Shown piece after piece: positions 2,140 through 37,112 of a DNA stretch of 64,000 bases. The DNA comes from Escherichia coli (GTDB lineage Bacteria > Pseudomonadota > Gammaproteobacteria > Enterobacterales > Enterobacteriaceae). The notes beneath the pieces are model-generated. The model saw only the letters and a list, made by a program, of their open reading frames with translations. It made no database searches and was not told where the DNA came from. The first letter of the stretch is position 1. Each line of letters starts with the position of its first letter. The DNA lies in assembly GCF_050920415.1 (NCBI RefSeq), contig NZ_CP169309.1, one strand, 5' to 3'. A program made the translations under genes and the position numbers.

Positions 2140-3567
2140 CTAGCGCGACTGCTGATTATATTCATCATCGCGTTGATAAGCTTCATCATTCGGCTGCTCC
2201 GGTACCGACCGCAGTCGATACTCTTCATCCTGGCTCACCGCTTGTTCAGCCAAATCCGGATTAATCTCGCGTTTAATTTCTACTCCTAAACCGCGAAACG
2301 CTTCTGCTTGCGCCAGCACATTTCCGCGACCTGAAGAGAGTTTTTTCATTGCCTGGCGATAGTTATCCTGCGCTTTGTCGAGACTTTGACCAATCGCGGA
2401 CATATCATCGACAAACAAGCGCATTTTGTCGTACAACTTGCTGGCACGATCGGCTATTTTCTGAGCGTTGCGGCTTTGATGCTCATAGCGCCAGAGGTTG
2501 GCGATAGTGCGCAGCGCCACCAGCAGCGTGGTCGGGCTAACCAGCATGATATTGTTTTTCAACGCTTCGGTGATCAGCTCCGGCTGGCGGTCAAGCGCCA
2601 GTAAAAATGCGGGCTCAACAGGGATAAACATCAGCACGTAATCCAGGGTTCGTAGCCCCGGCAGCTGTTGATAATCTTTACGTCCCAGCAAGCGGATGTG
2701 GTTACGCACCGACGCGATATGTTCCTGTAGCGAGCTTTCGCGGGTGTAGTCGTCTTCTGCGTTGAAATAGCGTTCATAGGCGACCAGCGTCATTTTGGCG
2801 TCGATCACCACATCTTTTCCGTGCGGCAACCGCACGATGACATCCGGCTGCATCCGCGAGCGGGCGTCATTTTCGATGCTGACCTGGGTTTCATATTCAT
2901 ACCCTTCACGCAGACCGGAAGCCTCCAGCACACGCGTCAATACTACCTCGCCCCAGTTGCCCTGGGTTTTATTGTCGCCTTTCAGCGCACGCGTCAGGTT
3001 GATCGCTTCCTGGGCCATTTGCGCGTTGAGCTGCTGGAGATTGCGTATTTCGTGAGTCAGGGTATGGCGTTCTTGTGCTTCTTTACCGAAACTGTCCTGA
3101 ACCTGACGACGAAAATCGTCCAGTTGTTCACGTAGTGGCGACAACAGGCTGTTCAGACTCTGACGGTTTTGCTCATCAACCCGGCGATTGCTGTGCTCGA
3201 AAATACGGTTGGCGAGGTTTTCAAACTGCTCACTGAGGCGCTGTTCGCTGTTGATCATTTGGCGAATTTTATCGTCAGCATGTTGCTGTACAGCCTCCAT
3301 TCGCGTGGTGACTTCACGCAGATCCGCCTCCAGCGAGGTGTTAATGCTTTGCAGACTGCGCACTTCATTATTGAGTAACTCGCACTCAGCACGCCAATGT
3401 TCGCTTTGGGTAATTTGTTGTTTTGCCGCACTTAACTCCGCGACCATCTCTTCACGTTCAGCGAATTGCTCGGCTTTTTGCTGCGCATGCTGATAACTGG
3501 CAATCAGCCAGCCAATCGCCACGCTCACCAACGCAATAACTGCGTAAACCATGATTGAGATATCCAC
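2140..3567 (-). CDS. rmuC: RmuC DNA recombination protein, 475 aa from GTG
   Basis: Track frame 2140..3660; GGAGG 4 nt before GTG at 3565-3567 (VDISIMVYAVIAL...), which matches the 475-aa length I recall for RmuC; ATG five codons downstream is the alternative start. Confidence 0.85.
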   Translation of the reverse strand: MDISIMVYAVIALVSVAIGWLIASYQHAQQKAEQFAEREEMVAELSAAKQQITQSEHWRAECELLNNEVRSLQSINTSLEADLREVTTRMEAVQQHADDKIRQMINSEQRLSEQFENLANRIFEHSNRRVDEQNRQSLNSLLSPLREQLDDFRRQVQDSFGKEAQERHTLTHEIRNLQQLNAQMAQEAINLTRALKGDNKTQGNWGEVVLTRVLEASGLREGYEYETQVSIENDARSRMQPDVIVRLPHGKDVVIDAKMTLVAYERYFNAEDDYTRESSLQEHIASVRNHIRLLGRKDYQQLPGLRTLDYVLMFIPVEPAFLLALDRQPELITEALKNNIMLVSPTTLLVALRTIANLWRYEHQSRNAQKIADRASKLYDKMRLFVDDMSAIGQSLDKAQDNYRQAMKKLSSGRGNVLAQAEAFRGLGVEIKREINPDLAEQAVSQDEEYRLRSVPEQPNDEAYQRDDEYNQQSR

Positions 3568-3779: not shown

Positions 3780-4550
3780 CGTATGGCAGATACCTCTTCA
3801 ACCACCGCTGGCGCACAAACGTTATTACGCGGGCTGGCGGTTCTTAATGCTGTTTATAACGGCTGCCATGACCTGAAAAGTATCGGCGAGTTCACCGGCA
3901 CGACCCGGAGCACAACCCATCGTTTAGTCACCGTTCTGGTGGAACAACGCTACCTGCGCCACGTCCCAACGCAGGGCTACCAACTGGGCGCCAAACTGAT
4001 CGAATTCGGTGCCAGAGCGCTGGAAAGCACCTCGCTGTACGAAGTTGCGCTGCCCGTTTTGCAACGCCTTGCCCGTTACACCCTGGACACCGTGCATCTG
4101 GGGATCGTTGAAGGCGACGAAGTGCTGTATCTGGAGAAGATCAACAGCCAGCGCGGGCTGGAAATGCGCTCACGCCCAGGCCATCGCATGCCACTGGCAA
4201 TCACCGGCATCGGCAAGGCATTGATCCTCAACCGAACAGAAGAAGAGTGGCGCACGCTGTTTAAGACCTGTGGTGATGAAACAAAACTGGGCGCATTTAT
4301 TCAGAACATGCGTCGTTATGCCGCCAGTGGTTTTGCTTTTGATCTGGAAGAGAACGAGCCGACTATCCGTTGCGTTGCAGCGCCGGTTTACAACGCCCGG
4401 GATGAAATTGTGGCGGCTATTTCTGTCGCCAGTACCACTACGTATATGTCACTGGCGCGTCTGGAAGAACTGGCACCTTACGTCAAATCCTGTGCAGAAG
4501 AGATATCCGCTGAACTGGGCTGGGGTAAGCACGTTCACAAAAATAAATAA
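3780..4550 (+). CDS. IclR-family transcriptional regulator, 256 aa
   Basis: Track frame 3696..4550; start set at ATG 3780 (MADTSSTTAGAQTLLRGLAVLNAV...) with AGGAG 6 nt upstream; N-terminal HTH then effector domain typical of IclR/KdgR-type regulators. Confidence 0.8.
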   Translation, partial: RMADTSSTTAGAQTLLRGLAVLNAVYNGCHDLKSIGEFTGTTRSTTHRLVTVLVEQRYLRHVPTQGYQLGAKLIEFGARALESTSLYEVALPVLQRLARYTLDTVHLGIVEGDEVLYLEKINSQRGLEMRSRPGHRMPLAITGIGKALILNRTEEEWRTLFKTCGDETKLGAFIQNMRRYAASGFAFDLEENEPTIRCVAAPVYNARDEIVAAISVASTTTYMSLARLEELAPYVKSCAEEISAELGWGKHVHKNK

Positions 4551-4573
4551 ACCATGACTAAAGGAAACGGCTA

Positions 4574-5578
4574 ATGTCGGGAAACACCTCATTTATTGCC
4601 CTGGACTGGGGAACGTCATCGCTTCGGGCATGGCGTTTTGGCGACTCACCCAATCCACAAGAAAAACGTGAATTCCCGTGGGGGATCATGAAATTACCCT
4701 CCCAGGCAGCAACACGTGAGGACGCTTTCCACGATACGTTTTTACGTGTCTGCGGCGACTGGCTGGCACAATCCCCATGCCCGATTCTGGCTTGCGGCAT
4801 GATCGGCAGTGCGCAAGGGTGGCAACCCGCAGCTTATTTACCTTGCCCGGTCACTCTCGAGGGTCTGGCAAAGCAGTTGACGCCTGTTATCTACCAGCAG
4901 CAGACAATGCTGCACATCATTCCCGGCGTGATTAAAGAAGGTGAAATGCCCGAAGTGATGCGTGGCGAAGAGACACAAATCTTCGGTGCTATCTCGATGG
5001 AACCGGCCCTGCAAAACGCGCTCCGCCAGGGTATGCCTGTGCTGATTGGCTTACCTGGCACACATGCGAAATGGGCGGTAGTTGAAAACAACACCATTAC
5101 CGATTTTCGAACCTTTATGACAGGCGAGTTATTTGATGTTTTATCCCGCCATTCGATTCTCGGTGCCACCATGCGTTCGGGAGATGAACCGCACTGGGAT
5201 GCCTTCGCCCACGGGCTGACAGCGGCACAAGAGCATCATCAGACCGGATTATTATCGACGCTGTTTTCGACCCGTTCGCGCCTGCTGACCAGTAATCTTA
5301 CGCCGTCCTCACAGGGGGATTACCTTTCAGGATTACTGATAGGCCATGAATTATGCGGTCTGGCATCCAGTTTGCTACGTGATTTACCCGCCACAACACC
5401 GATCGCCTTAATCGGTAGCGCCACTCTGAACAGCCGCTATTCACAAGCATTCAGCCACGTTTTTCCCGACAGACAGCTACACGCCATTCCTAATGCCACT
5501 GAACAGGGGTTATGGCGAATCGCCCACGCTGCCGGGCTACTCTCCACCAACGCCAGGGAATGTACTCATGCCATTTAA
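4574..5578 (+). CDS. 2-dehydro-3-deoxygalactonokinase (DgoK)-family sugar-acid kinase, 334 aa
   Basis: MSGNTSFIALDWGTSSLRAW..., ...MRGEETQIFGA..., ...FRTFMTGELFD... align with my recollection of E. coli DgoK; about 40 aa longer at C-terminus. Confidence 0.75.
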   Translation: MSGNTSFIALDWGTSSLRAWRFGDSPNPQEKREFPWGIMKLPSQAATREDAFHDTFLRVCGDWLAQSPCPILACGMIGSAQGWQPAAYLPCPVTLEGLAKQLTPVIYQQQTMLHIIPGVIKEGEMPEVMRGEETQIFGAISMEPALQNALRQGMPVLIGLPGTHAKWAVVENNTITDFRTFMTGELFDVLSRHSILGATMRSGDEPHWDAFAHGLTAAQEHHQTGLLSTLFSTRSRLLTSNLTPSSQGDYLSGLLIGHELCGLASSLLRDLPATTPIALIGSATLNSRYSQAFSHVFPDRQLHAIPNATEQGLWRIAHAAGLLSTNARECTHAI

Positions 5579-6197
5579 TACGCTTTTGCAAAAAACCGGG
5601 TTAGTCGCCATTTTACGCGGCGTGAAACCGGATGAGATTGTCGCCATCGGTGAAAAGCTGTATGCCTCTGGATTTCGCCTGATTGAGATTCCCATGAACT
5701 CGCCGGAGCCGTTGCAAAGTATCAGTTTACTGCGCGACGCCCTGCCTAAGGACTGCCTGGTCGGAGCCGGAACTGTGCTTTCGGTGGAGCACGTCGTCGC
5801 GGTTAAAGAGGCTGGAGGCCAGATTATCGTGATGCCGCATTGCGATACTGCGGTGATCCGTCGTGCCCGTGCGCTGGGTATGTATTGTGCGCCTGGCGTC
5901 GCTACGCCCACCGAAGCTTTTGCTGCCATTGAGCATGGTGCTAATGCCATCAAGCTGTTCCCGGCTGAACAAATTACGCCTGAAGTCACCAAAGCCTGGC
6001 GTGCGGTTATTCCACAATCCGTTCCGATGTTACCGGTTGGCGGTATCACTCCGGAAACCATGGCGCGTTATCTGAGCCACGGTGCAAACGGCTTTGGTCT
6101 CGGTTCTGCGCTTTATCGCCCTGGCATGACGCCAGAGCAGGTCTATAAAAATGCAGTACTGTTTATGAACGCATGGACCAATTTAAACAACAACTAA
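5568..6197 (+). CDS. KDPG/KDPGal-aldolase family protein (DgoA-like), 209 aa
   Basis: Track frame 5493..6197; start set at ATG 5568 (MPFNTLLQKTGLVAILRGVKPDE...), overlapping the kinase gene by 11 nt; aldolase motifs AILRG, GAGTVL, PVGGIT. Confidence 0.75.
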   Translation: MPFNTLLQKTGLVAILRGVKPDEIVAIGEKLYASGFRLIEIPMNSPEPLQSISLLRDALPKDCLVGAGTVLSVEHVVAVKEAGGQIIVMPHCDTAVIRRARALGMYCAPGVATPTEAFAAIEHGANAIKLFPAEQITPEVTKAWRAVIPQSVPMLPVGGITPETMARYLSHGANGFGLGSALYRPGMTPEQVYKNAVLFMNAWTNLNNN

Positions 6198-6221
6198 CTG
6201 ATAAATAAGGATATAAAAACA

Positions 6222-7196
6222 ATGATAAAACATCTTACCTTACCGAAAAAAATGGCTGCAATGGTACTCCTTGCCGGCGCTTCCCTCAGCACTGCGCCTG
6301 TGCAGGCGGCCTCCTACCCAACCAAACAGATCGAGTTAGTCGTACCCTACGCGGCCGGAGGCGGTACGGATCTGGTTGCCCGTGCCTTTGCTGATGCCGC
6401 CAAAAACCATTTGCCCGTCAGCATCGGGGTTATCAATAAACCTGGCGGTGGCGGCGCTATCGGCCTGAGTGAAATCGCCGCTGCCCGCCCTAACGGTTAC
6501 AAAATGGGTTTAGGCACGGTTGAACTGACCACCCTTCCCAGCCTCGGAATGGTGCGTTTTAAAACCAGCGACTTTAAACCCATTGCCCGTCTGAACGCGG
6601 ATCCGGCTGCTATCACCGTCCGTTCTGATGCGCCGTGGAATAGCTATGAAGAATTTATGACTTACGCCAAAGCGAATCCCGGAAAAGTACGCATTGGTAA
6701 CTCAGGCACCGGAGCAATCTGGCATCTGGCGGCAGCTGCACTGGAAGACAAAACGGGCGTGAAGTTTTCTCATGTCCCATATGACGGCGCAGCCCCTGCC
6801 ATTACAGGCCTGTTAGGCGGGCATATTGAAGCGGTTTCCGTAAGCCCAGGTGAAGTTATCAATCATGTGAAAGGCGGCAAGCTGAAGACACTGGTAGTGA
6901 TGGCGGATGAACATATGAAAACCATGCCTGACGTACCGACGTTAAAAGAGAAAGGCGTTGATCTCTCCATCGGCACCTGGCGCGGTCTGATCGTGTCGCA
7001 AAAAACGCCGCAGGATGTGGTTGATGTTCTGGCTAAGGCCGCAAAAGAGACGGCTGAAGAGCCTGCATTCCAGGATGCTCTGCAAAAGTTGAATCTCAAC
7101 TATGCATGGCTTGATGGTGCCAGCTTCCAGACCCAAATCAACGAACAGGAAAAGTACTTTGACGAGTTACTAACTCGGCTGGGCTTGAAAAAATAA
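6222..7196 (+). CDS. tctC: Tripartite tricarboxylate transporter (TTT) periplasmic substrate-binding protein, TctC/Bug family, 324 aa
   Basis: N-terminal signal peptide (MIKHLTLPKKMAAMVLLAGASLSTAPVQA); AAGGGTDL motif typical of TctC/Bug proteins. Confidence 0.8.
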   Translation: MIKHLTLPKKMAAMVLLAGASLSTAPVQAASYPTKQIELVVPYAAGGGTDLVARAFADAAKNHLPVSIGVINKPGGGGAIGLSEIAAARPNGYKMGLGTVELTTLPSLGMVRFKTSDFKPIARLNADPAAITVRSDAPWNSYEEFMTYAKANPGKVRIGNSGTGAIWHLAAAALEDKTGVKFSHVPYDGAAPAITGLLGGHIEAVSVSPGEVINHVKGGKLKTLVVMADEHMKTMPDVPTLKEKGVDLSIGTWRGLIVSQKTPQDVVDVLAKAAKETAEEPAFQDALQKLNLNYAWLDGASFQTQINEQEKYFDELLTRLGLKK

Positions 7197-7212
7197 TCCC
7201 GAGGTACGGTCG

Positions 7213-7719
7213 ATGAACACAAAACAGTCTGTTGCTCAACTCGCCGTACCGCACCGCAAGCGCCTTTCATCCACTGTGGTGGTGGCGCTGTTACTTTGTG
7301 TGGTTGCTGGCGCGGTGATAATTAATGCCGCTGATTTTCCAGCAACTGCCATTGAAACGGATCCCGGTGCAAGTGCCTTCCCTACTTTCTATGCCTGCGC
7401 TCTGATTGTGCTCGCTGTCTTACTGGTGATACGCGATCTTTTGCTGGCAAAACCAGTCCCTTGCGCCAACGCACAGGAAAAACCGGCATTAAGGAAAACG
7501 GCAACAGGAATTGCGGCAACCGCGTTTTATATTGTGGCGATGAGCTACTGCGGTTATCTCATTACTACTCCTGTTTTCCTCATCGTCATTATGACGTTGA
7601 TGGGCTACAGGCGATGGGTACTCACACCGGGTATTGCGCTGCTGTTAACGGCAATCCTCTGGTTGCTGTTTGTCGAAGCGTTACAGGTGCCATTGCCTGT
7701 CGGCACATTTTTCGAATAA
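7213..7719 (+). CDS. tctB: TTT small membrane subunit TctB, 168 aa
   Basis: Small hydrophobic multi-TM protein between tctC-like and tctA-like genes. Confidence 0.75.
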   Translation: MNTKQSVAQLAVPHRKRLSSTVVVALLLCVVAGAVIINAADFPATAIETDPGASAFPTFYACALIVLAVLLVIRDLLLAKPVPCANAQEKPALRKTATGIAATAFYIVAMSYCGYLITTPVFLIVIMTLMGYRRWVLTPGIALLLTAILWLLFVEALQVPLPVGTFFE

Positions 7720-7731
7720 CAGGGGCCTGCA

Positions 7732-9222
7732 ATGTTTGAAAGTGAACTTTTAACTCAGGGGTTTTCGACATTACTCAGTAATCCTCAGGCGCTGCTGTTT
7801 GCCACGTTTGGAGTGATGCTGGGTATTATGATTGGCGCTCTGCCTGGCCTGACAGCGACCATGGGTGTGGCGATTTTGCTGCCTTTCACCTACGGCATGG
7901 AGCCTGTTTCTGGCTTATTGATGATTTGCGGTGTCTTTTTTGGTGGTGTGTATGGTGGTTCTATCACCGCAATTTTGCTCAAAATTCCCGGTACACCTGC
8001 CGCCGCTGCCACCGCCATTGACGGATATGAGCTGACGAAGCAGGGAAAAGCCGGGCTGGCGTTAAGTGCCGCCACGTTCTCTTCTTTTAGCGGTGGAACG
8101 CTCAGCATTATCGTATTGATGTTTCTCTCTCCGGTACTTGCCAGTTGGGCGTTGAAATTTAGTGCCTCGGAGTCCTTCGCCCTGGCAACCTTCGGGCTAA
8201 GTATTATTGCCAGTATTTCCGGTGAGTCACTGATTAAAGGGCTGATTGCCGGGGTTGGCGGATTGCTGATCGCAACGATAGGCCTTGATCCAATGGGCGG
8301 TTTTCCACGCTTTACAGGTGGATTTGTGGAGCTGATGAATGTGCCATTTATCCCGGTGATGATTGGTCTGTTTGCTGCTTCAGAAGCATTCCGCTCTATG
8401 GAGCAAAACCAGCAAATTCGTCAGGGGGCGAAGGTGGCTATCGGCAGTCTGTTACTGCCCTGGCAAACACTACGCCGCATCGCATTAACCATTTTGCGCT
8501 CATCAGGATTAGGGGTTTTTATCGGCATGATCCCCGGTGCGGGGGCAGATATTGCAGCTTTTGTTGCCTATAACGAAACTCGTCGTTTCAGTAAGACGCC
8601 TGAAAACTTTGGTAAGGGTGAGATTAAGGCGGTGGCCTCCTGTGAGGCAGGCGCGAATGGCTGCACCGGTGGCGCATTGTTACCTATGCTGACGTTGGGG
8701 ATCCCAGGCGATGCGGTAACTGCCATCATGCTGGGCGCGTTAACGTTACAAGGGATGCAGCCAGGCCCACTGATGTTTACCGACCACGGCGATATGGTTT
8801 ATACGCTGTTTGTCGGCATGATCTTTTGTTACTTCATGCTGCTAGTTCTTGGACTGCTCTCTTTGAAAGTCATCGGTAACGTGGTGAAGATCCCCGGCAA
8901 TATTCTCACGCCGATGATCCTCGCGCTTTGTGTTGTTGGGACTTATGCGCTGAACAACAGCCTGTTTGATGTTGGCATTATGCTGATTGCAGGCGTGGTG
9001 GGCTATTTCATGCAAAAAGGGGGGTATCCGGCGTCACCCGTAGTGCTGGCATTGATTATGGGGCCAATGGCGGAAAGTAATTTTCGCCGTGCGCTGTCGC
9101 TTTCAGGGGGGTCACTCGACTTCCTGTATACCCGACCGATAACCCTGGCATTGCTGACTCTGGCAGCCTTTACGCTACTGACGCCAATAATACGCAAAAT
9201 TATGCGCTTACGGCGTCAGTAA
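7732..9222 (+). CDS. tctA: TTT large permease subunit TctA, 496 aa
   Basis: About 500-aa polytopic membrane protein with Gly-rich helices, directly after tctB-like gene. Confidence 0.8.
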   Translation: MFESELLTQGFSTLLSNPQALLFATFGVMLGIMIGALPGLTATMGVAILLPFTYGMEPVSGLLMICGVFFGGVYGGSITAILLKIPGTPAAAATAIDGYELTKQGKAGLALSAATFSSFSGGTLSIIVLMFLSPVLASWALKFSASESFALATFGLSIIASISGESLIKGLIAGVGGLLIATIGLDPMGGFPRFTGGFVELMNVPFIPVMIGLFAASEAFRSMEQNQQIRQGAKVAIGSLLLPWQTLRRIALTILRSSGLGVFIGMIPGAGADIAAFVAYNETRRFSKTPENFGKGEIKAVASCEAGANGCTGGALLPMLTLGIPGDAVTAIMLGALTLQGMQPGPLMFTDHGDMVYTLFVGMIFCYFMLLVLGLLSLKVIGNVVKIPGNILTPMILALCVVGTYALNNSLFDVGIMLIAGVVGYFMQKGGYPASPVVLALIMGPMAESNFRRALSLSGGSLDFLYTRPITLALLTLAAFTLLTPIIRKIMRLRRQ

Positions 9223-9276
9223 TTGATATCGCTCCCCGACGTTGGGGAGTATGAGACTGATGACAAACGCTAAATT

Positions 9277-9376
9277 GCCTGATGCGCTGCGCTTATCAGG
9301 CCTACCACAGAAATGCAATATATTGAATTTGCATGCTTTTGTAGGCCGGATAAGGCGATCACGCCGCATCCGGCAT
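9277..9376. repeat. REP pair (BIME) in tctA-udp spacer
   Basis: gcctgatgcgctgcgcttatcaggcctac and gtaggccggataaggcgatcacgccgcatccggca, inverted REP consensus units. Confidence 0.8.
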
Positions 9377-9407
9377 GAACAAAGCACACGTTAACAACAA
9401 TCGGAAT

Positions 9408-9437
9408 GCTCCCCGACGTTGGGGAGCGTTTTTTTAT
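9408..9437 (+). terminator. Hairpin GCTCCCCGACGTTGGGGAGC followed by T7 run; intrinsic-terminator-like, oriented for plus strand
   Basis: Stem CTCCCC/GGGGAG then TTTTTTTATTT; sits just before udp stop; a copy of the hairpin without T-run occurs at 9231-9249. Confidence 0.5.
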
Positions 9438-11272: not shown

Positions 11273-11663
11273 TTTCCTCTTAGTCTATATTTGAGATGGT
11301 GAGTGAACGAATGCGTTTTGCTGCCATCTCTGTCCCCCAAAAAATAATCAGTATGAATTGATTGGAGAGCACGACTCCGCTATTTGACCTTAAGAAAGTC
11401 GGCAAGTCATAGTCATAAATGAGTCTCTTCACTGGCAGACACCTTAAAGATTTACCATCAACTCCCATTCTCAAACAAACATTAATTATTATCAACACAT
11501 TCACATTAATTATAAATTATCTCAGACCTTCCTGATAAAAAGATATTAAAGTGAAACATTTTGTTTTTCACATTTTAGTTCATCCCTATTAGGCGTAAAT
11601 AAAGGTAAAAAATAACAATACTATTTTTCTTTCACAAAAGAATTAACAAAAGGTTTTTCAAGG

Positions 11664-12062
11664 ATGAGTGATATTATTTACCTGACCATAACCGGAGAAC
11701 AACACGGATGTATTTCCTCTCGTTGTGGAACGAGCACATCAATAGGTAATCGCTGGCAGATTGGTCATGAAGATGAAATCTTCGCGTTCTCGCTCTCTAA
11801 TAGTATTACGAATACAGGAAAAGGGTCACATTTGCATGGCCTTAGTTTCTGTAAGTTGATTGACAAAAGCTCCCCGTTACTTATTAACGCTATTAACAAT
11901 AACGAGCAGTTGTTCATGGAGTTTGACTTCTATCGGATCAATAGATTTGGTCGATGGGAGAAATATTACAACATTCAACTCCGCGGCGCGCTCTTATCAG
12001 CAATCAATCACCTGTTTACGGAGAACAATCTGGATACAGAAACCATCACTGTCAGTTATTAA
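11664..12062 (+). CDS. Hcp-family (T6SS tube protein) domain ORF, 132 aa, ends at TAA in frame with the downstream toxin-like ORF
   Basis: MSDIIYLTITGEQHG...GKGSHLHGLSFCKLIDKSSPLL...FDFYRINRFGRWEKYYNIQL fits the Hcp-family pattern; AT-rich. Confidence 0.7.
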   Translation: MSDIIYLTITGEQHGCISSRCGTSTSIGNRWQIGHEDEIFAFSLSNSITNTGKGSHLHGLSFCKLIDKSSPLLINAINNNEQLFMEFDFYRINRFGRWEKYYNIQLRGALLSAINHLFTENNLDTETITVSY

Positions 12063-12107
12063 TATATACTCTCCAGGCATCTGATTGCTAATACTGAATT
12101 TAGTTAT

Positions 12108-12812
12108 TTGGCATTTCCCGATAACTACAATCGTCTGTTTATACCACGGCCAAAAACTAAAGATGATAATGGCCTCAAAACACTCAATAGTAAAGCTGTT
12201 GGCAGACTGCTTGCTGCTGGCGGCATATACAATGGGAATATCGAAGGATTCAGGGAAACAGCAAACAAGTTGGGGGGAGATGCACCTGCTGGTTACGATC
12301 AAGTTATGGATAACAAAGGGTTACTCATCGCTGGTGCTTCAATAGTTGCTGGAGCAGTTCTGGGGAGAATGAGACTCCCTGATTTGGAATCACTTGAGCA
12401 TTTCGGAGCCAGAGGAGCAGTATCAGGAAGACCATTTAATCCCGACCTTGCCGGTGGTCCAATAGAAAATCTGACGACAGATGGCGTAACAATCAACAGG
12501 GAAGGTATCGCTATTGTTGAAAAACACATAGCCAGATTTGGTCATGACCCTGTAAATGAAGTGATGATCAATAGACTGAAAGACATTGAGAAAGGAAAAA
12601 TCCCCCCAGAACAAGTAGATCTTAACTTCTATACTCATGAATGTCGGGAATATCAGCGTTACTGTAATCTTGGTTGGGAAACAGGACAACCTGATGGTGA
12701 CGCAGGCTATGCACTCTGGAATCATACGCATACTGCTACTCTAGAAGATTATAAACTTAAGGGAGAACTTAATGACTTATACCACCAGGATGCACTTGAC
12801 TATGATAACTGA
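12108..12812 (+). CDS. Toxin-like C-terminal domain ORF (class undetermined), same frame as upstream Hcp ORF; 234 aa from TTG
   Basis: Same reading frame as 11664..12062 with only one stop (TAA 12060-12062) and 15 open codons between; no ATG or SD of its own. Confidence 0.6.
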   Translation: MAFPDNYNRLFIPRPKTKDDNGLKTLNSKAVGRLLAAGGIYNGNIEGFRETANKLGGDAPAGYDQVMDNKGLLIAGASIVAGAVLGRMRLPDLESLEHFGARGAVSGRPFNPDLAGGPIENLTTDGVTINREGIAIVEKHIARFGHDPVNEVMINRLKDIEKGKIPPEQVDLNFYTHECREYQRYCNLGWETGQPDGDAGYALWNHTHTATLEDYKLKGELNDLYHQDALDYDN

Positions 12813-13047
12813 AACTGAAATTAACGTACTGAAAGTTATGGCTGAGAAAGATATAAACTGGAACTGGATGAATCTCGATCGCACACTATCTATAAGGCAA
12901 ATTCCAGGATTCGGTAATGTTGTTAACATTGTTAACAAATTAGCTAACGAGGGTTTGGTTATTATTGAGGATAGCGGACATAAGTCTATGCCTCACTACC
13001 ACGTTACTGAAAAGGGATACAATCTCGTGAAAAGTGAGAATAAATAA
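12802..13047 (+). CDS. Small putative immunity protein, 81 aa
   Basis: ATG at 12802 overlaps the toxin ORF stop (ATGATAACTGA); track frame 12772..13047. Confidence 0.55.
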   Translation: MITETEINVLKVMAEKDINWNWMNLDRTLSIRQIPGFGNVVNIVNKLANEGLVIIEDSGHKSMPHYHVTEKGYNLVKSENK

Positions 13048-13141
13048 CGTAGCGTTGATTACTGAACAAATCGCTCAGGATTATATTTTGCGAAAAAAAT
13101 GATTCGGTTATTTCTGTGTCTGAACGGCCGCAGATAGCAAA

Positions 13142-13165
13142 ATGGCTTCCGGTGATGGAAGCCAT
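13142..13165 (+). terminator. 9-bp stem hairpin ATGGCTTCC-ggtgat-GGAAGCCAT downstream of the islet
   Basis: Perfect inverted repeat read directly; weak T tract (cagattattgg). Confidence 0.3.
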
Positions 13166-13195
13166 CAGATTATTGGCAAAGTGCGTGTTGTTCAT

Positions 13196-13226
13196 GCCGG
13201 ATGCGGCGTGAACGCCTTATCTGGCC
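13196..13226. repeat. REP element
   Basis: gccggatgcggcgtgaacgccttatctggcc. Confidence 0.75.
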
Positions 13227-13333
13227 AACTAAATCTTGAAAATTCAATAAATTGAATAAATTATGTAGGCCTGGTATCAGGCAGTTTCGCCTCTTTCATC
13301 GTACTGCAATTTACAGTGACTCGTTAATACTCA

Positions 13334-25668: not shown

Positions 25669-26517
25669 ATGAACAACATATTAGGCTCATCAATTAATAT
25701 GCCCTGTACACTTTTCGAAACTATTACTTTATTCGATGATTTTTCTGCTGATGATATGCAGTATGGGGATATGGAAGAACAAGATTTTCTCTCACTCGGC
25801 TTAAGCGACATCTCTGCAAAAGTTGATCCTTACCGCCTCATTAAATACCATTTTCCTGGGCCGAATTCTACTTATGGTGCTTTTAGTGTTCCAACTTCTG
25901 GAACAAAAATATCACAAAGTGAATGTATTGATATTTTATTTGCAGAAATGAAAGATCTGGCAAAAATGTTTTCCTTTTTTGGACAATACAAAACACTCAT
26001 CCAGGATCTGATTGATCATTTTAGATATGGAAATGGCAACAGTTTCCATAGCCAGGAATTGAACTTATCTTTTCATGAACGAATAAACAAATATGATTAT
26101 AATAGCCCAATACGTGTAATCAAAGAATGTATCGAAAATGATATTTCTTCAACACCTACGATAGGATACCGGCCTCTTCTCCTACAAAAGATTAAGACCG
26201 AATTACTTTCATCAAGACTAAATAAATTCAATGATTTTAAAGATAATTTTAATGGCCTGGGAATCAGCATTCATGATATCTCAGCTCAAAAAATATCTCT
26301 TTTAAATTTTCAAAAATATCCTATGGGCTGGAGCGCTACCATTCATTTCATAGCACAAGACCACTTTGGTTTGGATGTGACTGATATAAAAAACAAGATT
26401 TACAACAAGTATAGATTTTTTCGCATATGGTTCTTTTTACAACGGCATAAAGACTTTGCTTTCAAACCTTTTTTTACCAATTTTAACACTATCGAAAGAA
26501 TCGAAAATTATCTATGA
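25669..26517 (+). CDS. Hypothetical protein, 282 aa, AT-rich gene at the yigG/yigF position
   Basis: Long ORF in AT-rich DNA with a Shine-Dalgarno AAGGAG 7 nt upstream; no family I can assign. Confidence 0.6.
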   Translation: MNNILGSSINMPCTLFETITLFDDFSADDMQYGDMEEQDFLSLGLSDISAKVDPYRLIKYHFPGPNSTYGAFSVPTSGTKISQSECIDILFAEMKDLAKMFSFFGQYKTLIQDLIDHFRYGNGNSFHSQELNLSFHERINKYDYNSPIRVIKECIENDISSTPTIGYRPLLLQKIKTELLSSRLNKFNDFKDNFNGLGISIHDISAQKISLLNFQKYPMGWSATIHFIAQDHFGLDVTDIKNKIYNKYRFFRIWFFLQRHKDFAFKPFFTNFNTIERIENYL

Positions 26518-26942
26518 AAAGCAAACTCCAGAAAATTATATTATATTTATTTCTTATATGCTGCATCTATAATTTATGGACATTGCGTCCTGTACAGATT
26601 TTGTATACATACTCTGATGCTGGCAATTCAGTCTTTCTGGTCGTTGATCATCTGCCATGGACTGATAGCGATAAAATAAATTGGTATCTGAAGCATCAGG
26701 ATGAAATTAAAAGTCAAAATCCCCTACCAGAAGGTAGTTGGCATACCTGGTATGTTATTGATATCGGTAATGGCTTCACTGACTATAAAAAATATATCGA
26801 AGGGCTGTATGAAGATCTCTACTGTTTCCCGACGATTAAGAGCAATGATAATTGCATCGTAAAAAACTATTTAATGGTTATTAATGAATATCCTTACCGT
26901 AATACTCATTTTTTATTGCTGATAACAATGAGTATCAACTAA
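26514..26942 (+). CDS. Hypothetical small protein with N-terminal hydrophobic segment, 142 aa, translationally coupled to upstream gene
   Basis: ATGA start/stop overlap with 25669..26517; MKSKLQKIILYLFLICCIYNLW signal/anchor-like N-terminus. Confidence 0.6.
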   Translation: MKSKLQKIILYLFLICCIYNLWTLRPVQILYTYSDAGNSVFLVVDHLPWTDSDKINWYLKHQDEIKSQNPLPEGSWHTWYVIDIGNGFTDYKKYIEGLYEDLYCFPTIKSNDNCIVKNYLMVINEYPYRNTHFLLLITMSIN

Positions 26943-27045
26943 CCCAGGAAAATAAGATAGAGCGAGTGTTCAACCCGCATGACTTTGAAAAAGACAATTT
27001 TCAGCAATAAGCCGGATAAAGAACAATCTTTACCCGGCATTTATA

Positions 27046-35084: not shown

Positions 35085-37112
35085 ATGCACTATCGCAATG
35101 TGGTTTGTTTGTTGTCTTTTTTAGTTCCGTCAGCGTGGGGATGCTCGCTCGGTGAACCTGATCATAATATTTACCAGAAACAGGGAAAAGGCGTGGTATA
35201 CCTGCGCCCTAATGAAGAGACAAATCTTTCGTTACCGGAAGTAAATTACCAGCGACTGCGTCGTTTACCTGATTTATTCATTGCTCCTGACACCCAGGAC
35301 GATGGGGAAAAAGAACCGCCGTTAAACGACCTTACCACCGATTATATTGATCAGGGCGCATGGGCCTGGTATCCAAATTATGCTTACTTTAGCGATGGCC
35401 GTTTTGTCATTTATGCGGGCAAGATTGTACAAAATCCATCTGGTTATCCACCGGTCGATGTAGCCTCGTTCCATTCATGGGGCGATTTTGCCGTCGATAA
35501 AAACAGCATTTATTACAAAGGCCAACGGACAGATGAAAATGGCGGCAAGCAACGCGTCGATGAAAAAACGCTGCGCAAAGTAGGATTAGGTAGCCGTTGG
35601 ATGCCTGATCGGCTGGGATTGGTGCTACGTGACGCGCATTTTCTTTATATCGATGGGCACCGTTTTGATAACCCAGAGAGTTTTTCCGTGATCGCGCAAA
35701 AATCCTGGGGTCAACAAGGGAAATTCGCTTCAACGTTTTTTCCCTGCATTGCCTACCCCTTTGGCCCGTGGGATATGCTTACCCGCACACGAACAAAGTT
35801 GCTGATCAATGGAGAGCAACTGGATGCCGATCCGGACAATTTTTCTGTCGTTCGCTGGATGCCCGGCACCCTGTTTAGCTGGCGTGATAAACACGGCGAG
35901 CATCGTAAAGTCATTGATCAGGTTCGTTTGGCAAGGAATGAAGATATATCCCGGCAATGTGACAACTTTACGCTGTTAGAAAAAAAGGTGTTCTGGCGCA
36001 AGGGGCCAGATTGTGAGCAGGAAGAATTACCCAGTCTCGACCCGGAGCAGTTTCACCCGATCAGTGACATCGTGGCGCAGTATCAGGACAAGTTGTATGC
36101 AATCAGTAAGACCCCCTTCGGTGAAAATCAGTTGGAGATCATCACCCTGGATAACCCGAATCTGATCATCAATAAACGTTTTAATGCAGGAAGGCATCAT
36201 GGCTATTTACTCACCCGATCAACAAATTGGGACGGACATGAGAAAGACGGTTTACAGGTGTTTGAATCCGTTGGCCCACTGATACTGCTGGACTACCGTG
36301 TGCCGAATGAAGCAGATGCACACCGTGGCAATAACCCGCATTACAAAAAATGGTTTGCTCGCGACGATCGTTACGTTTATGCATTCGATGGTGCGCAGCT
36401 TTGGCGTTACCCTACGCAATATCCCAAAGCGGCACGTATCAAAGCCGCTAAAGACGACTGGCTGAACGTCAGCCTTAGCCAGTTGGACGGTGAGATAATG
36501 AAAGATGGCTCATTTACTCCCACTGGCATCAAGCACACATCCTCTTTAAAACCCGCCAAGGCATACGAAGATGGGGACAATGAATCTTCATTTATCGTAA
36601 ATAAATCGGGAGTAGGCTGGCGAAAAGCGCTTTCACCCGACCTGCAATGGAGTGAGTGGCATTACCTGGAAGGCATTGATCCAAAAAAGTTTCATCTGAT
36701 TACCGAACGTATTGCACAGTACAAAAACCAACTCTACGTCGTCAGGCGCTCGCATTTTGGAGAAGATCGGCTCGAAATCATAGAGTTGGAGTCATCTTTG
36801 CCCATCAAAAATAAACCGATAAATACGGGCAAGGAGCGTCATTACTTTCTGCAAAGTACCCGACAAAAACAGGATGTGCAGGTATTCACCAGCAGCGGTG
36901 CGCTGATAGCAACGGAGCGCTTTGCTTATGACGATAGCTATGTCTACACCTGGATTGACGATCAGCTTTATCGCACACCCTCCCCCTGCCCAGCGAAAAC
37001 ATACGTCAGAGAAAAGAATGTCCGTGAAATTCATAACAGCGACATTATTATTCCGGTGACGGAGGAATCGTGCCGGAACGCAGCAGCAGACGGGCAAACT
37101 TTGAAGCCCTGA
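35085..37112 (+). CDS. Large secreted DKNYY-repeat family protein, 675 aa from ATG (685 from upstream GTG)
   Basis: Signal peptide MHYRNVVCLLSFLVPSAWGC; motif DKNSIYYKGQR; two internally duplicated segments (FHPISDIVAQYQDKLY...FGENQLEIITLD / FHLITERIAQYKNQLY...FGEDRLEIIELE); AGGA 9 nt before ATG 35085. Confidence 0.7.
   Translation: MHYRNVVCLLSFLVPSAWGCSLGEPDHNIYQKQGKGVVYLRPNEETNLSLPEVNYQRLRRLPDLFIAPDTQDDGEKEPPLNDLTTDYIDQGAWAWYPNYAYFSDGRFVIYAGKIVQNPSGYPPVDVASFHSWGDFAVDKNSIYYKGQRTDENGGKQRVDEKTLRKVGLGSRWMPDRLGLVLRDAHFLYIDGHRFDNPESFSVIAQKSWGQQGKFASTFFPCIAYPFGPWDMLTRTRTKLLINGEQLDADPDNFSVVRWMPGTLFSWRDKHGEHRKVIDQVRLARNEDISRQCDNFTLLEKKVFWRKGPDCEQEELPSLDPEQFHPISDIVAQYQDKLYAISKTPFGENQLEIITLDNPNLIINKRFNAGRHHGYLLTRSTNWDGHEKDGLQVFESVGPLILLDYRVPNEADAHRGNNPHYKKWFARDDRYVYAFDGAQLWRYPTQYPKAARIKAAKDDWLNVSLSQLDGEIMKDGSFTPTGIKHTSSLKPAKAYEDGDNESSFIVNKSGVGWRKALSPDLQWSEWHYLEGIDPKKFHLITERIAQYKNQLYVVRRSHFGEDRLEIIELESSLPIKNKPINTGKERHYFLQSTRQKQDVQVFTSSGALIATERFAYDDSYVYTWIDDQLYRTPSPCPAKTYVREKNVREIHNSDIIIPVTEESCRNAAADGQTLKP

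Follow-up and report, generated by a model that had tools for sequence, protein, structure and literature searches.

Within a stretch of 64,000 nucleotides of Escherichia coli (contig NZ_CP169309.1; hereafter the window, meaning this whole stretch) we analysed the AT-rich islet that lies between ysgA (dlhH) and metE. The islet is very probably a decayed copy of an auxiliary ('orphan') T6SS (type VI secretion system) effector-immunity module. Its effector gene would encode an Hcp-toxin fusion of the Hcp-ET type; it is interrupted by a single nonsense codon and is followed by an intact immunity-type gene.

When translated straight from 11664 to 12812, the effector gene comprises 382 codons with only one stop, the TAA at 12060-12062. 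An earlier note, made from the letters of this DNA, had described a 132-amino-acid (aa) open reading frame (ORF) with Hcp signatures (11664-12062) and a 234-codon segment in the same frame (12108-12812). The shared frame was correct and nothing but this TAA separates the two. However, they are not two ORFs but read as one gene that is interrupted by a nonsense mutation. Strain GF43 carries an uninterrupted tssD of 382 aa (WP_042003084.1) followed by the immunity protein WP_000627422.1, and RIVM_C036569 carries an uninterrupted tssD of 377 aa reading ...ITVSYEYILSRHL..., with GAA (Glu133) at the site of the stop. Because intact alleles read GAA where the window reads TAA, the window holds a pseudogene and not the working effector locus that the earlier note had implied. 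Hcp and toxin extension form one unbroken ORF in GF43 and RIVM_C036569 but not in the window, where the TAA at codon 133 leaves a 132-aa Hcp fragment as the product of the native start. The islets of the window and GF43 differ at 31 positions, which in the protein amount to E133* plus six missense changes; between 12376 and 13256 the two DNAs are identical. The same allele is flagged as tssD with an 'internal stop' by the Prokaryotic Genome Annotation Pipeline (PGAP) in strains N96 and MFDS1022581 and in one O121:H19 strain.

The assignment of 11664-12062 to the Hcp family, which the earlier note would have given up for want of an Hcp match, was confirmed by matches to PF05638 (E=3.5e-14) and TIGR03344 (E=2e-33; 115.6 bits, cutoff 58.9). 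In the latter search the truncated protein covers positions 1-131 of the 167 profile positions. In an AlphaFold2 (AF2) model of the full-length protein the Hcp strands continue past the stop, at residues 134-139 and 144-148; this model is poor (mean predicted local distance difference test score, pLDDT, 58.6), and only its secondary structure was used, with caution. The complete Hcp fold that builds hexameric rings is not found in the product of the window allele, which ends at residue 132.

Intact and broken alleles among E. coli genomes

To follow the module through the species, 5,426 complete E. coli genomes were searched by megablast. It was present at the ysgA-metE site, annotated as tssD, in about 848 of them (about 15%), so the view of the earlier note that this effector class is sparsely sampled does not hold here. 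A 43-mer with the T of the E133* codon at its centre was found in 23 genomes, mostly O121:H19 STEC (strains of E. coli that produce Shiga toxin) and their relatives, and the version of the same 43-mer with G (GAA) in 817 genomes. Megablast demands an exact word of 28 bases and a central mismatch therefore abolishes the match, so that these counts can be read as allele counts. Since the TAA is common to 23 genomes, E133* must have been passed on by descent and did not arise as an error of sequencing.

The same gene has been inactivated in other ways. A second nonsense codon, W98* (TAG), was found in 282 genomes, among them those of Nissle 1917 and of ATCC 11775, the type strain, and the TGG allele at codon 98 in 561. 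W98* is independent of E133* and is fixed in many B2 strains, of which APEC E12053 is one (positions 3489-3491 of the extracted locus). Moreover, an insertion sequence (IS) of the IS3 family lies in the effector locus of the O145:H28 strain RM13514, and MFDS1022581 carries an IS2 on top of E133*. Altogether, the toxin gene contains a nonsense codon in at least 305 of the about 848 loci, and the downstream immunity gene was intact in every inspected copy. Intact, W98*, E133* and IS-disrupted toxins beside an intact immunity gene form a natural series, which is suited to asking whether carriers of immunity alone are favoured. The feature is real but ordinary: the copy in the window is a dead accessory T6SS effector that reference annotation had already flagged.

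The islets fall into more than one type. The window-type toxin tip and immunity gene were found at ≥99% identity in 116 genomes. Most islets are of the L002 type (that of RIVM_C036569), with 710 genomes matching at 90-95% identity. Islets of this type have a divergent toxin tip with an immunity gene of its own (85 aa), followed by a second gene that is ~88% identical at the DNA level to the immunity gene of the window. A cognate immunity gene with an orphan one next to it is a well-known arrangement.

Toxin domain, immunity gene and proposed function

The earlier note had found nothing nameable in the toxin segment. This proved to be wrong, as the last part of the protein belongs to the cytotoxic family of carocin D, pyocin G and pyocin SX2. 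A phmmer search with the last 134 residues against 1.84 billion representatives gave 472 matching clusters (defined at 50% identity), and Pyocin_S-containing bacteriocins were matched at E around 1e-25. Nearly all matches are C-terminal, in proteins of 130 to 5,214 aa that include Rhs/YD-repeat, PAAR, S-type pyocin and other proteins; for the long relatives the cluster names are mostly missing. Such a C-terminal spread over varied carriers reads as the signature of a polymorphic-toxin killing domain. The AF2 model of the toxin domain is all-alpha and of high confidence (pLDDT 96.4), and Foldseek against AFDB50 matched it to Carocin D (D8WUT9; 44% identity, template modelling (TM) score 0.92, E=3e-12) as well as to dozens of S-type pyocin and klebicin entries (43-57% identity, TM ~0.9). 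The killing domains of carocin D, carocin S3, pyocin G and pyocin SX2 have been described as one family that is paired with an immunity protein of ~10 kDa (PMC7322526, PMC10422930), and the predicted structure of SX2 as unlike any known bacteriocin killing domain (PMC10422930). The family has neither a Pfam model nor a solved structure. In agreement with this, searches of the toxin region against Pfam, NCBIfam, PADLOC and PDB sequences, with the single sequence and with a 49-sequence profile, gave nothing significant, and a PDB fold search with the domain model gave no match and no nuclease fold.

In the alignment of 49 sequences H43, R59, D74, Y78, H80, E81, E84, R87, W107, H111 and A113 are invariant and N108 is nearly so. 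In the numbering of the full protein the conserved residues are H288, R304, D319, Y323, H325, E326, E329, R332, W352, N353 and H356. The calculated isoelectric point (pI) is 5.0 for the toxin domain, which is acidic, and 6.3, near neutral, for the immunity protein. In colicin-type DNases a basic nuclease is usually paired with an acidic immunity protein. The acidic pI found here speaks, if weakly, against a toxin that binds DNA non-specifically.

Between the Hcp part and the toxin lies a conserved 'pre-toxin' segment, which contains the most hydrophobic 17-mer of the whole protein, LLIAGASIVAGAVLGRM. From KTLNSK...GRLLAAGGIYNGN through LLIAGASIVAGAVLGRM and the toxin, ~70% identity is found in proteins with unrelated N-termini, namely DUF8093 proteins and a 348-aa family of Pantoea, Klebsiella and Cronobacter. 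The order of the module thus reads as delivery domain, conserved pre-toxin segment and toxin. The homologue search with the Hcp part returned mainly gene fragments and says little about the diversity of toxins on this scaffold. In bacteriocins this toxin is preceded by a Pyocin_S domain for inner-membrane translocation (IMT) (PMC9040868), as in P0257, a Pyocin_S-containing relative of 642 aa. No Pfam match to this domain (Pyocin_S/IMT, PF06958) was found anywhere in residues 134-382. The hydrophobic helix with its small-xxx-G-xxx-G pattern (S226, G230, G234) is comparable to the glycine-zipper segment that Tde1 carries (PMC10240207) and, on this analogy, may help the toxin to cross the inner membrane of the prey.

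The small overlapping ORF that the earlier note had placed as an immunity gene was borne out in its position: it has 81 codons, overlaps the 3' end of the toxin by 11 nt, and its longest form would be 91 aa, starting at 12772. Its coordinates are those of the N96 gene annotated WP_000627422.1, the protein that stands next to the intact effector of GF43, and its position is like that of the 91-aa ORF overlapping the end of P0257. The family occurs only in enterobacteria, adjoining these toxins, and has only weak winged-helix similarity. The RefSeq name 'MarR family transcriptional regulator' was not supported by profile or fold tests. Together, these observations suggest that the ORF encodes the cognate immunity protein. 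As in the Hcp-ET class, the gene lies directly downstream of the effector, and it is kept beside intact and broken effectors alike. For both proteins a naming as carocin D / pyocin G-type toxin and immunity protein fits the evidence better than the RefSeq names.

From this anatomy and these homologies we infer how the module would work. In the intact 382-aa protein, the N-terminal domain would form an Hcp tube subunit and the toxin would travel as a component of the T6SS inner tube. The glycine-rich hydrophobic pre-toxin segment would probably cross the inner membrane of the prey, and the all-alpha C-terminal killing domain of ~135 aa would attack nucleic acid or translation once inside the cytoplasm of the prey. 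The 81-aa protein from the overlapping gene, if expressed, would protect the producing cell and its kin by binding to the toxin and blocking it. With the window allele the toxin could presumably not be fired, because the TAA ends an Hcp fragment and none of the start codons available to the toxin part stands at a suitable distance from a ribosome-binding site. The intact immunity gene would still shield the strain from relatives with a working allele.

Several points weigh against this interpretation. Past the stop there are candidate internal starts (TTG 12108, TTG 12270, ATG 12306 and ATG 12369), low-level readthrough or internal initiation may occur, and PGAP annotates a 150-aa 'colicin' coding sequence in O121:H19. 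The 750 untranslated nt past the stop could lower transcription of the immunity gene through Rho-dependent polarity. The 81-aa protein agrees in size and position with the immunity proteins CaroDI and ImG, and its similarity to the ORF linked to P0257 is only marginal (BLASTP E=0.006, hhalign E=0.043). Furthermore, carocin D and S3 were reported to be DNases, while carocin S2, which was placed close to S3 by its authors, was reported as an RNase (PMC7461348), and pyocin SX2 lacks DNase activity and inhibits in vitro translation (PMC10422930). The family of the toxin can be named, but its chemistry is disputed between DNase and translation inhibition. An intact E. coli allele such as that of GF43 would be convenient for settling these contradictory activities of a widespread toxin family. 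It is possible, although we regard it as rather doubtful, that the domain is an enzyme with an all-alpha fold unlike solved structures (invariant residues H288, D319, H325, E326, E329, R332, N353 and H356), that it targets RNA or translation and not DNA, and that it enters via the glycine-zipper-like segment instead of a Pyocin_S domain; the loss of the toxin with kept immunity would then record selection for carriers with 'defence only'.

Among the other explanations of the locus, the one that survives best, and still an improbable one, is that a split two-part system continues to work. Here the 132-aa Hcp fragment, a separately translated toxin (from TTG 12108 or an internal ATG) and the immunity protein would act as a cargo effector or as a toxin-antitoxin-like addiction pair that stabilises the islet. 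The toxin frame past the stop is indeed still open and identical to that of GF43 from 12376 on, gene callers and PGAP yield products of 147 to 234 aa from it, and the TAA allele persists in 23 genomes. However, the identity downstream is equally explained by a recent mutation, and the internal ATGs are poorly placed: just 1 nt separates ATG 12369 from the GGGGAG 5' of it, and no Shine-Dalgarno-like sequence was seen upstream of ATG 12306. The truncated Hcp also lacks the last strands of the fold, and it is hard to see how a toxin fragment that carries no Hcp, PAAR or VgrG domain would reach a T6SS. Finally, W98* and IS elements destroy the same gene in other lineages, which is the pattern expected of decay.

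Very little speaks for an Hcp-ET1-type HNH DNase effector, as PGAP/RefSeq would have it, where pieces of the gene are called 'HNH endonuclease' or 'colicin'. Hcp-ET1 is the best-known Hcp-toxin fusion of E. coli (PMC6730261), and His, Glu, Asn and His residues are present (H325, E326, N353, H356), but profile and fold tests did not support these names: no HNH or Colicin-DNase (beta-beta-alpha-metal) match was obtained with Pfam even at E≤10, and the confidently modelled domain is all-alpha. Least credible of all is that the window encodes an intact effector, with the stop either read through or produced by an error of sequencing or assembly. A single base does separate the window from intact alleles at this codon, but the same T occurs in 23 complete genomes from related lineages, each assembled independently, PGAP flags the stop consistently, and TAA is not known as a codon that E. 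coli recodes.

The islet and other features of the window

The decayed module fills an islet of 2,061 bp between the end of ysgA (11272) and that of metE (13334, minus strand). The GC content of the islet is 39.4%, compared to 53.9% for ysgA and 55.7% for metE. As the earlier note had stated, the two genes are adjacent and convergent in K-12, with a gap of 39 bp at this site in MG1655. The junction is also empty in strain 55989 (~39 bp), and the ~2 kb of AT-rich DNA of the window is a horizontally variable islet. The contrast to K-12 drawn in the note stood with regard to the islet, but a paralogous Hcp-toxin gene, yhhZ, is present in K-12. The junctions of the islet are the last codons of ysgA and the stop codon of metE. 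We looked for flanking direct repeats, which would hint at a mobile-element mechanism, and for an integrase at the islet and found neither.

The leader in front of the effector gene may act as its promoter, although scans of the islet for promoters and terminators gave nothing better than shuffled sequence; weak sigma-70-like matches in the leader (e.g. at 11384-11413) were no commoner than in shuffled sequence. Between the immunity gene and metE lies an element of the repetitive extragenic palindromic (REP) type, which has a median of 11 matching places per genome and matches in 5,425 of the 5,426 complete genomes. It contains the motif GCCGGATGCGGCGTGAACGCCTTATCTGGCC, which we take to be the E. 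coli REP consensus. This element is missing from the L002-type islets.

Strain N96 has a syntenic region of 64 kb that is ~99% identical to the window with the same gene coordinates. No T6SS core genes are annotated in it, in line with the designation of the module as orphan. The region otherwise holds housekeeping genes and a few small accessory islets.

Table 1. Features of the ysgA-metE islet in the window
Feature	Position	Strand	Basis
AT-rich accessory islet, ysgA stop to metE stop	11273..13333	.	GC contrast; comparison with K-12 and 55989
Non-coding leader 5' of the effector gene, presumed promoter region, 32.5% GC	11273..11663	+	No conserved ORF
Hcp-ET-type specialised effector gene (tssD-toxin fusion), 382 codons, pseudogene	11664..12812	+	Single internal TAA
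Hcp (TssD) domain, 132 N-terminal codons	11664..12059	+	PF05638, TIGR03344
Premature stop TAA, Glu133 to stop, G-to-T at 12060	12060..12062	+	Intact alleles read GAA
Linker and conserved 'pre-toxin' segment, residues 134-245	12063..12398	+	Comparison with homologues and YhhZ
Hydrophobic glycine-zipper-like helix, residues 219-236	12318..12371	+	Within the pre-toxin segment
Predicted toxin domain, residues 246-382, carocin D / pyocin G / pyocin SX2 cytotoxic family	12399..12812	+	phmmer, Foldseek
Immunity-type gene, 81 aa, intact, 11-nt overlap with toxin 3' end	12802..13047	+	Position, conservation
REP-type repetitive extragenic element between immunity gene and metE	13165..13297	.	Genome-wide repeat counts

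Other accessory DNA was seen elsewhere in the window. A cluster of ~5.5 kb (~3960-9400) lies between rmuC and udp, which adjoin each other in K-12 and 55989. By the annotation of N96 it encodes an IclR-type regulator, a 2-dehydro-3-deoxygalactonokinase with its aldolase and a TctC/TctB/TctA tripartite tricarboxylate transporter. A repeat pair of the REP/BIME (bacterial interspersed mosaic element) type is inserted 3' of the tctA-like gene at 9250-9407, between two direct copies of the 19-nt sequence GCTCCCCGACGTTGGGGAG (9231-9249 and 9409-9427); N96, which is otherwise collinear, lacks this pair. Between rarD and corA, a two-gene islet (25669-27011) encodes one protein of the YPO3983 family (TIGR03034, E=9e-119) and one with DUF943. 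In addition, a 675-aa ORF (35085-37112, plus strand) lies between lptM (yifL) and cyaY, where K-12 presumably has no gene. It is annotated 'hypothetical protein' in N96 (WP_024211977.1) and gave no NCBIfam or PADLOC match.

Related Hcp-toxin systems

The Hcp-ET class and its T6SS-dependent delivery have been described by Ma et al. (2017, Virulence 8:1189), as far as summarised in PMC6730261 and PMC6099711. The module of the window resembles this class in that an Hcp domain at the N-terminus continues in frame into a toxin at the C-terminus, an immunity gene follows directly downstream, the module stands outside T6SS clusters and a polymorphic toxin is carried on a conserved scaffold. It differs in that the window copy is broken by a stop codon and that five toxin clans have been named for the class (HNH-DNase, DUF2235, Pyocin S, Colicin-DNase and papain-like), to none of which Pfam assigns its toxin. 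Hcp-ET1 was described in 55989 and O104:H4 with recognisable HNH and colicin E7/E9 domains (10.1101/2024.03.05.583533). Because the ysgA-metE junction of 55989 is empty and the toxin of the window has no HNH or colicin domain, the module is a different member of the class than Hcp-ET1; the HNH-like paralogue is yhhZ, which lies elsewhere. The Hcp-toxin T6EC4 of Citrobacter koseri was also considered, but was not taken as the same domain, as it is described as REase-5-like (PMC11148199).

With carocin D and S3, pyocin G and SX2 the module shares the last ~135 residues and a small gene of 81-91 aa that overlaps the 3' end (Roh et al. 2010; PMC7461348; PMC7322526; PMC10422930). Here the carrier is an Hcp domain and not a set of receptor-binding and TonB-box domains, a glycine-rich hydrophobic segment stands in place of the Pyocin_S translocation domain, the E. 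coli toxin domain is acidic, and the immunity proteins can barely be aligned.

Hcp-toxin genes on one Hcp scaffold are found at no fewer than three loci in E. coli, which are yhhZ, usp and ysgA-metE. Usp (uropathogenic-specific protein) of UTI89 (6401-8182 of the extracted locus) is 65% identical to the effector over residues 1-171, that is the Hcp part and linker, and is followed by three bacteriocin-immunity genes. It corresponds to 'Hcp-ET3-4' of Ma et al. according to the summary in PMC6730261. In contrast to the gene of the window, it has 593 aa, lies at aroP-pdhR and was reported to combine a Pyocin_S domain with a DNase of the colicin type (PMC6730261, PMC9040868).

YhhZ of K-12 (b3442, 'putative endonuclease') is 73% identical over residues 1-230. 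The likeness runs through Hcp domain and linker into the pre-toxin segment, as far as the hydrophobic helix, and extends to the presence of an immunity-type gene downstream (YrhA). On the other hand, yhhZ lies at yhhY-yrhB, ends in another toxin, which the Pfam models HNH and Col-Pyo_DNase match weakly, and is followed by another downstream gene. In K-12, yhhZ (5864-7042 of the extracted locus) adjoins a yrhA that is disrupted by IS1. K-12 has no T6SS (PMC6730261), so that such a module survives there in a genome without the secretion system. Because its N-terminal 230 residues are 73% identical to those of YhhZ, the gene of the window is a polymorphic-toxin cassette on a shared scaffold.

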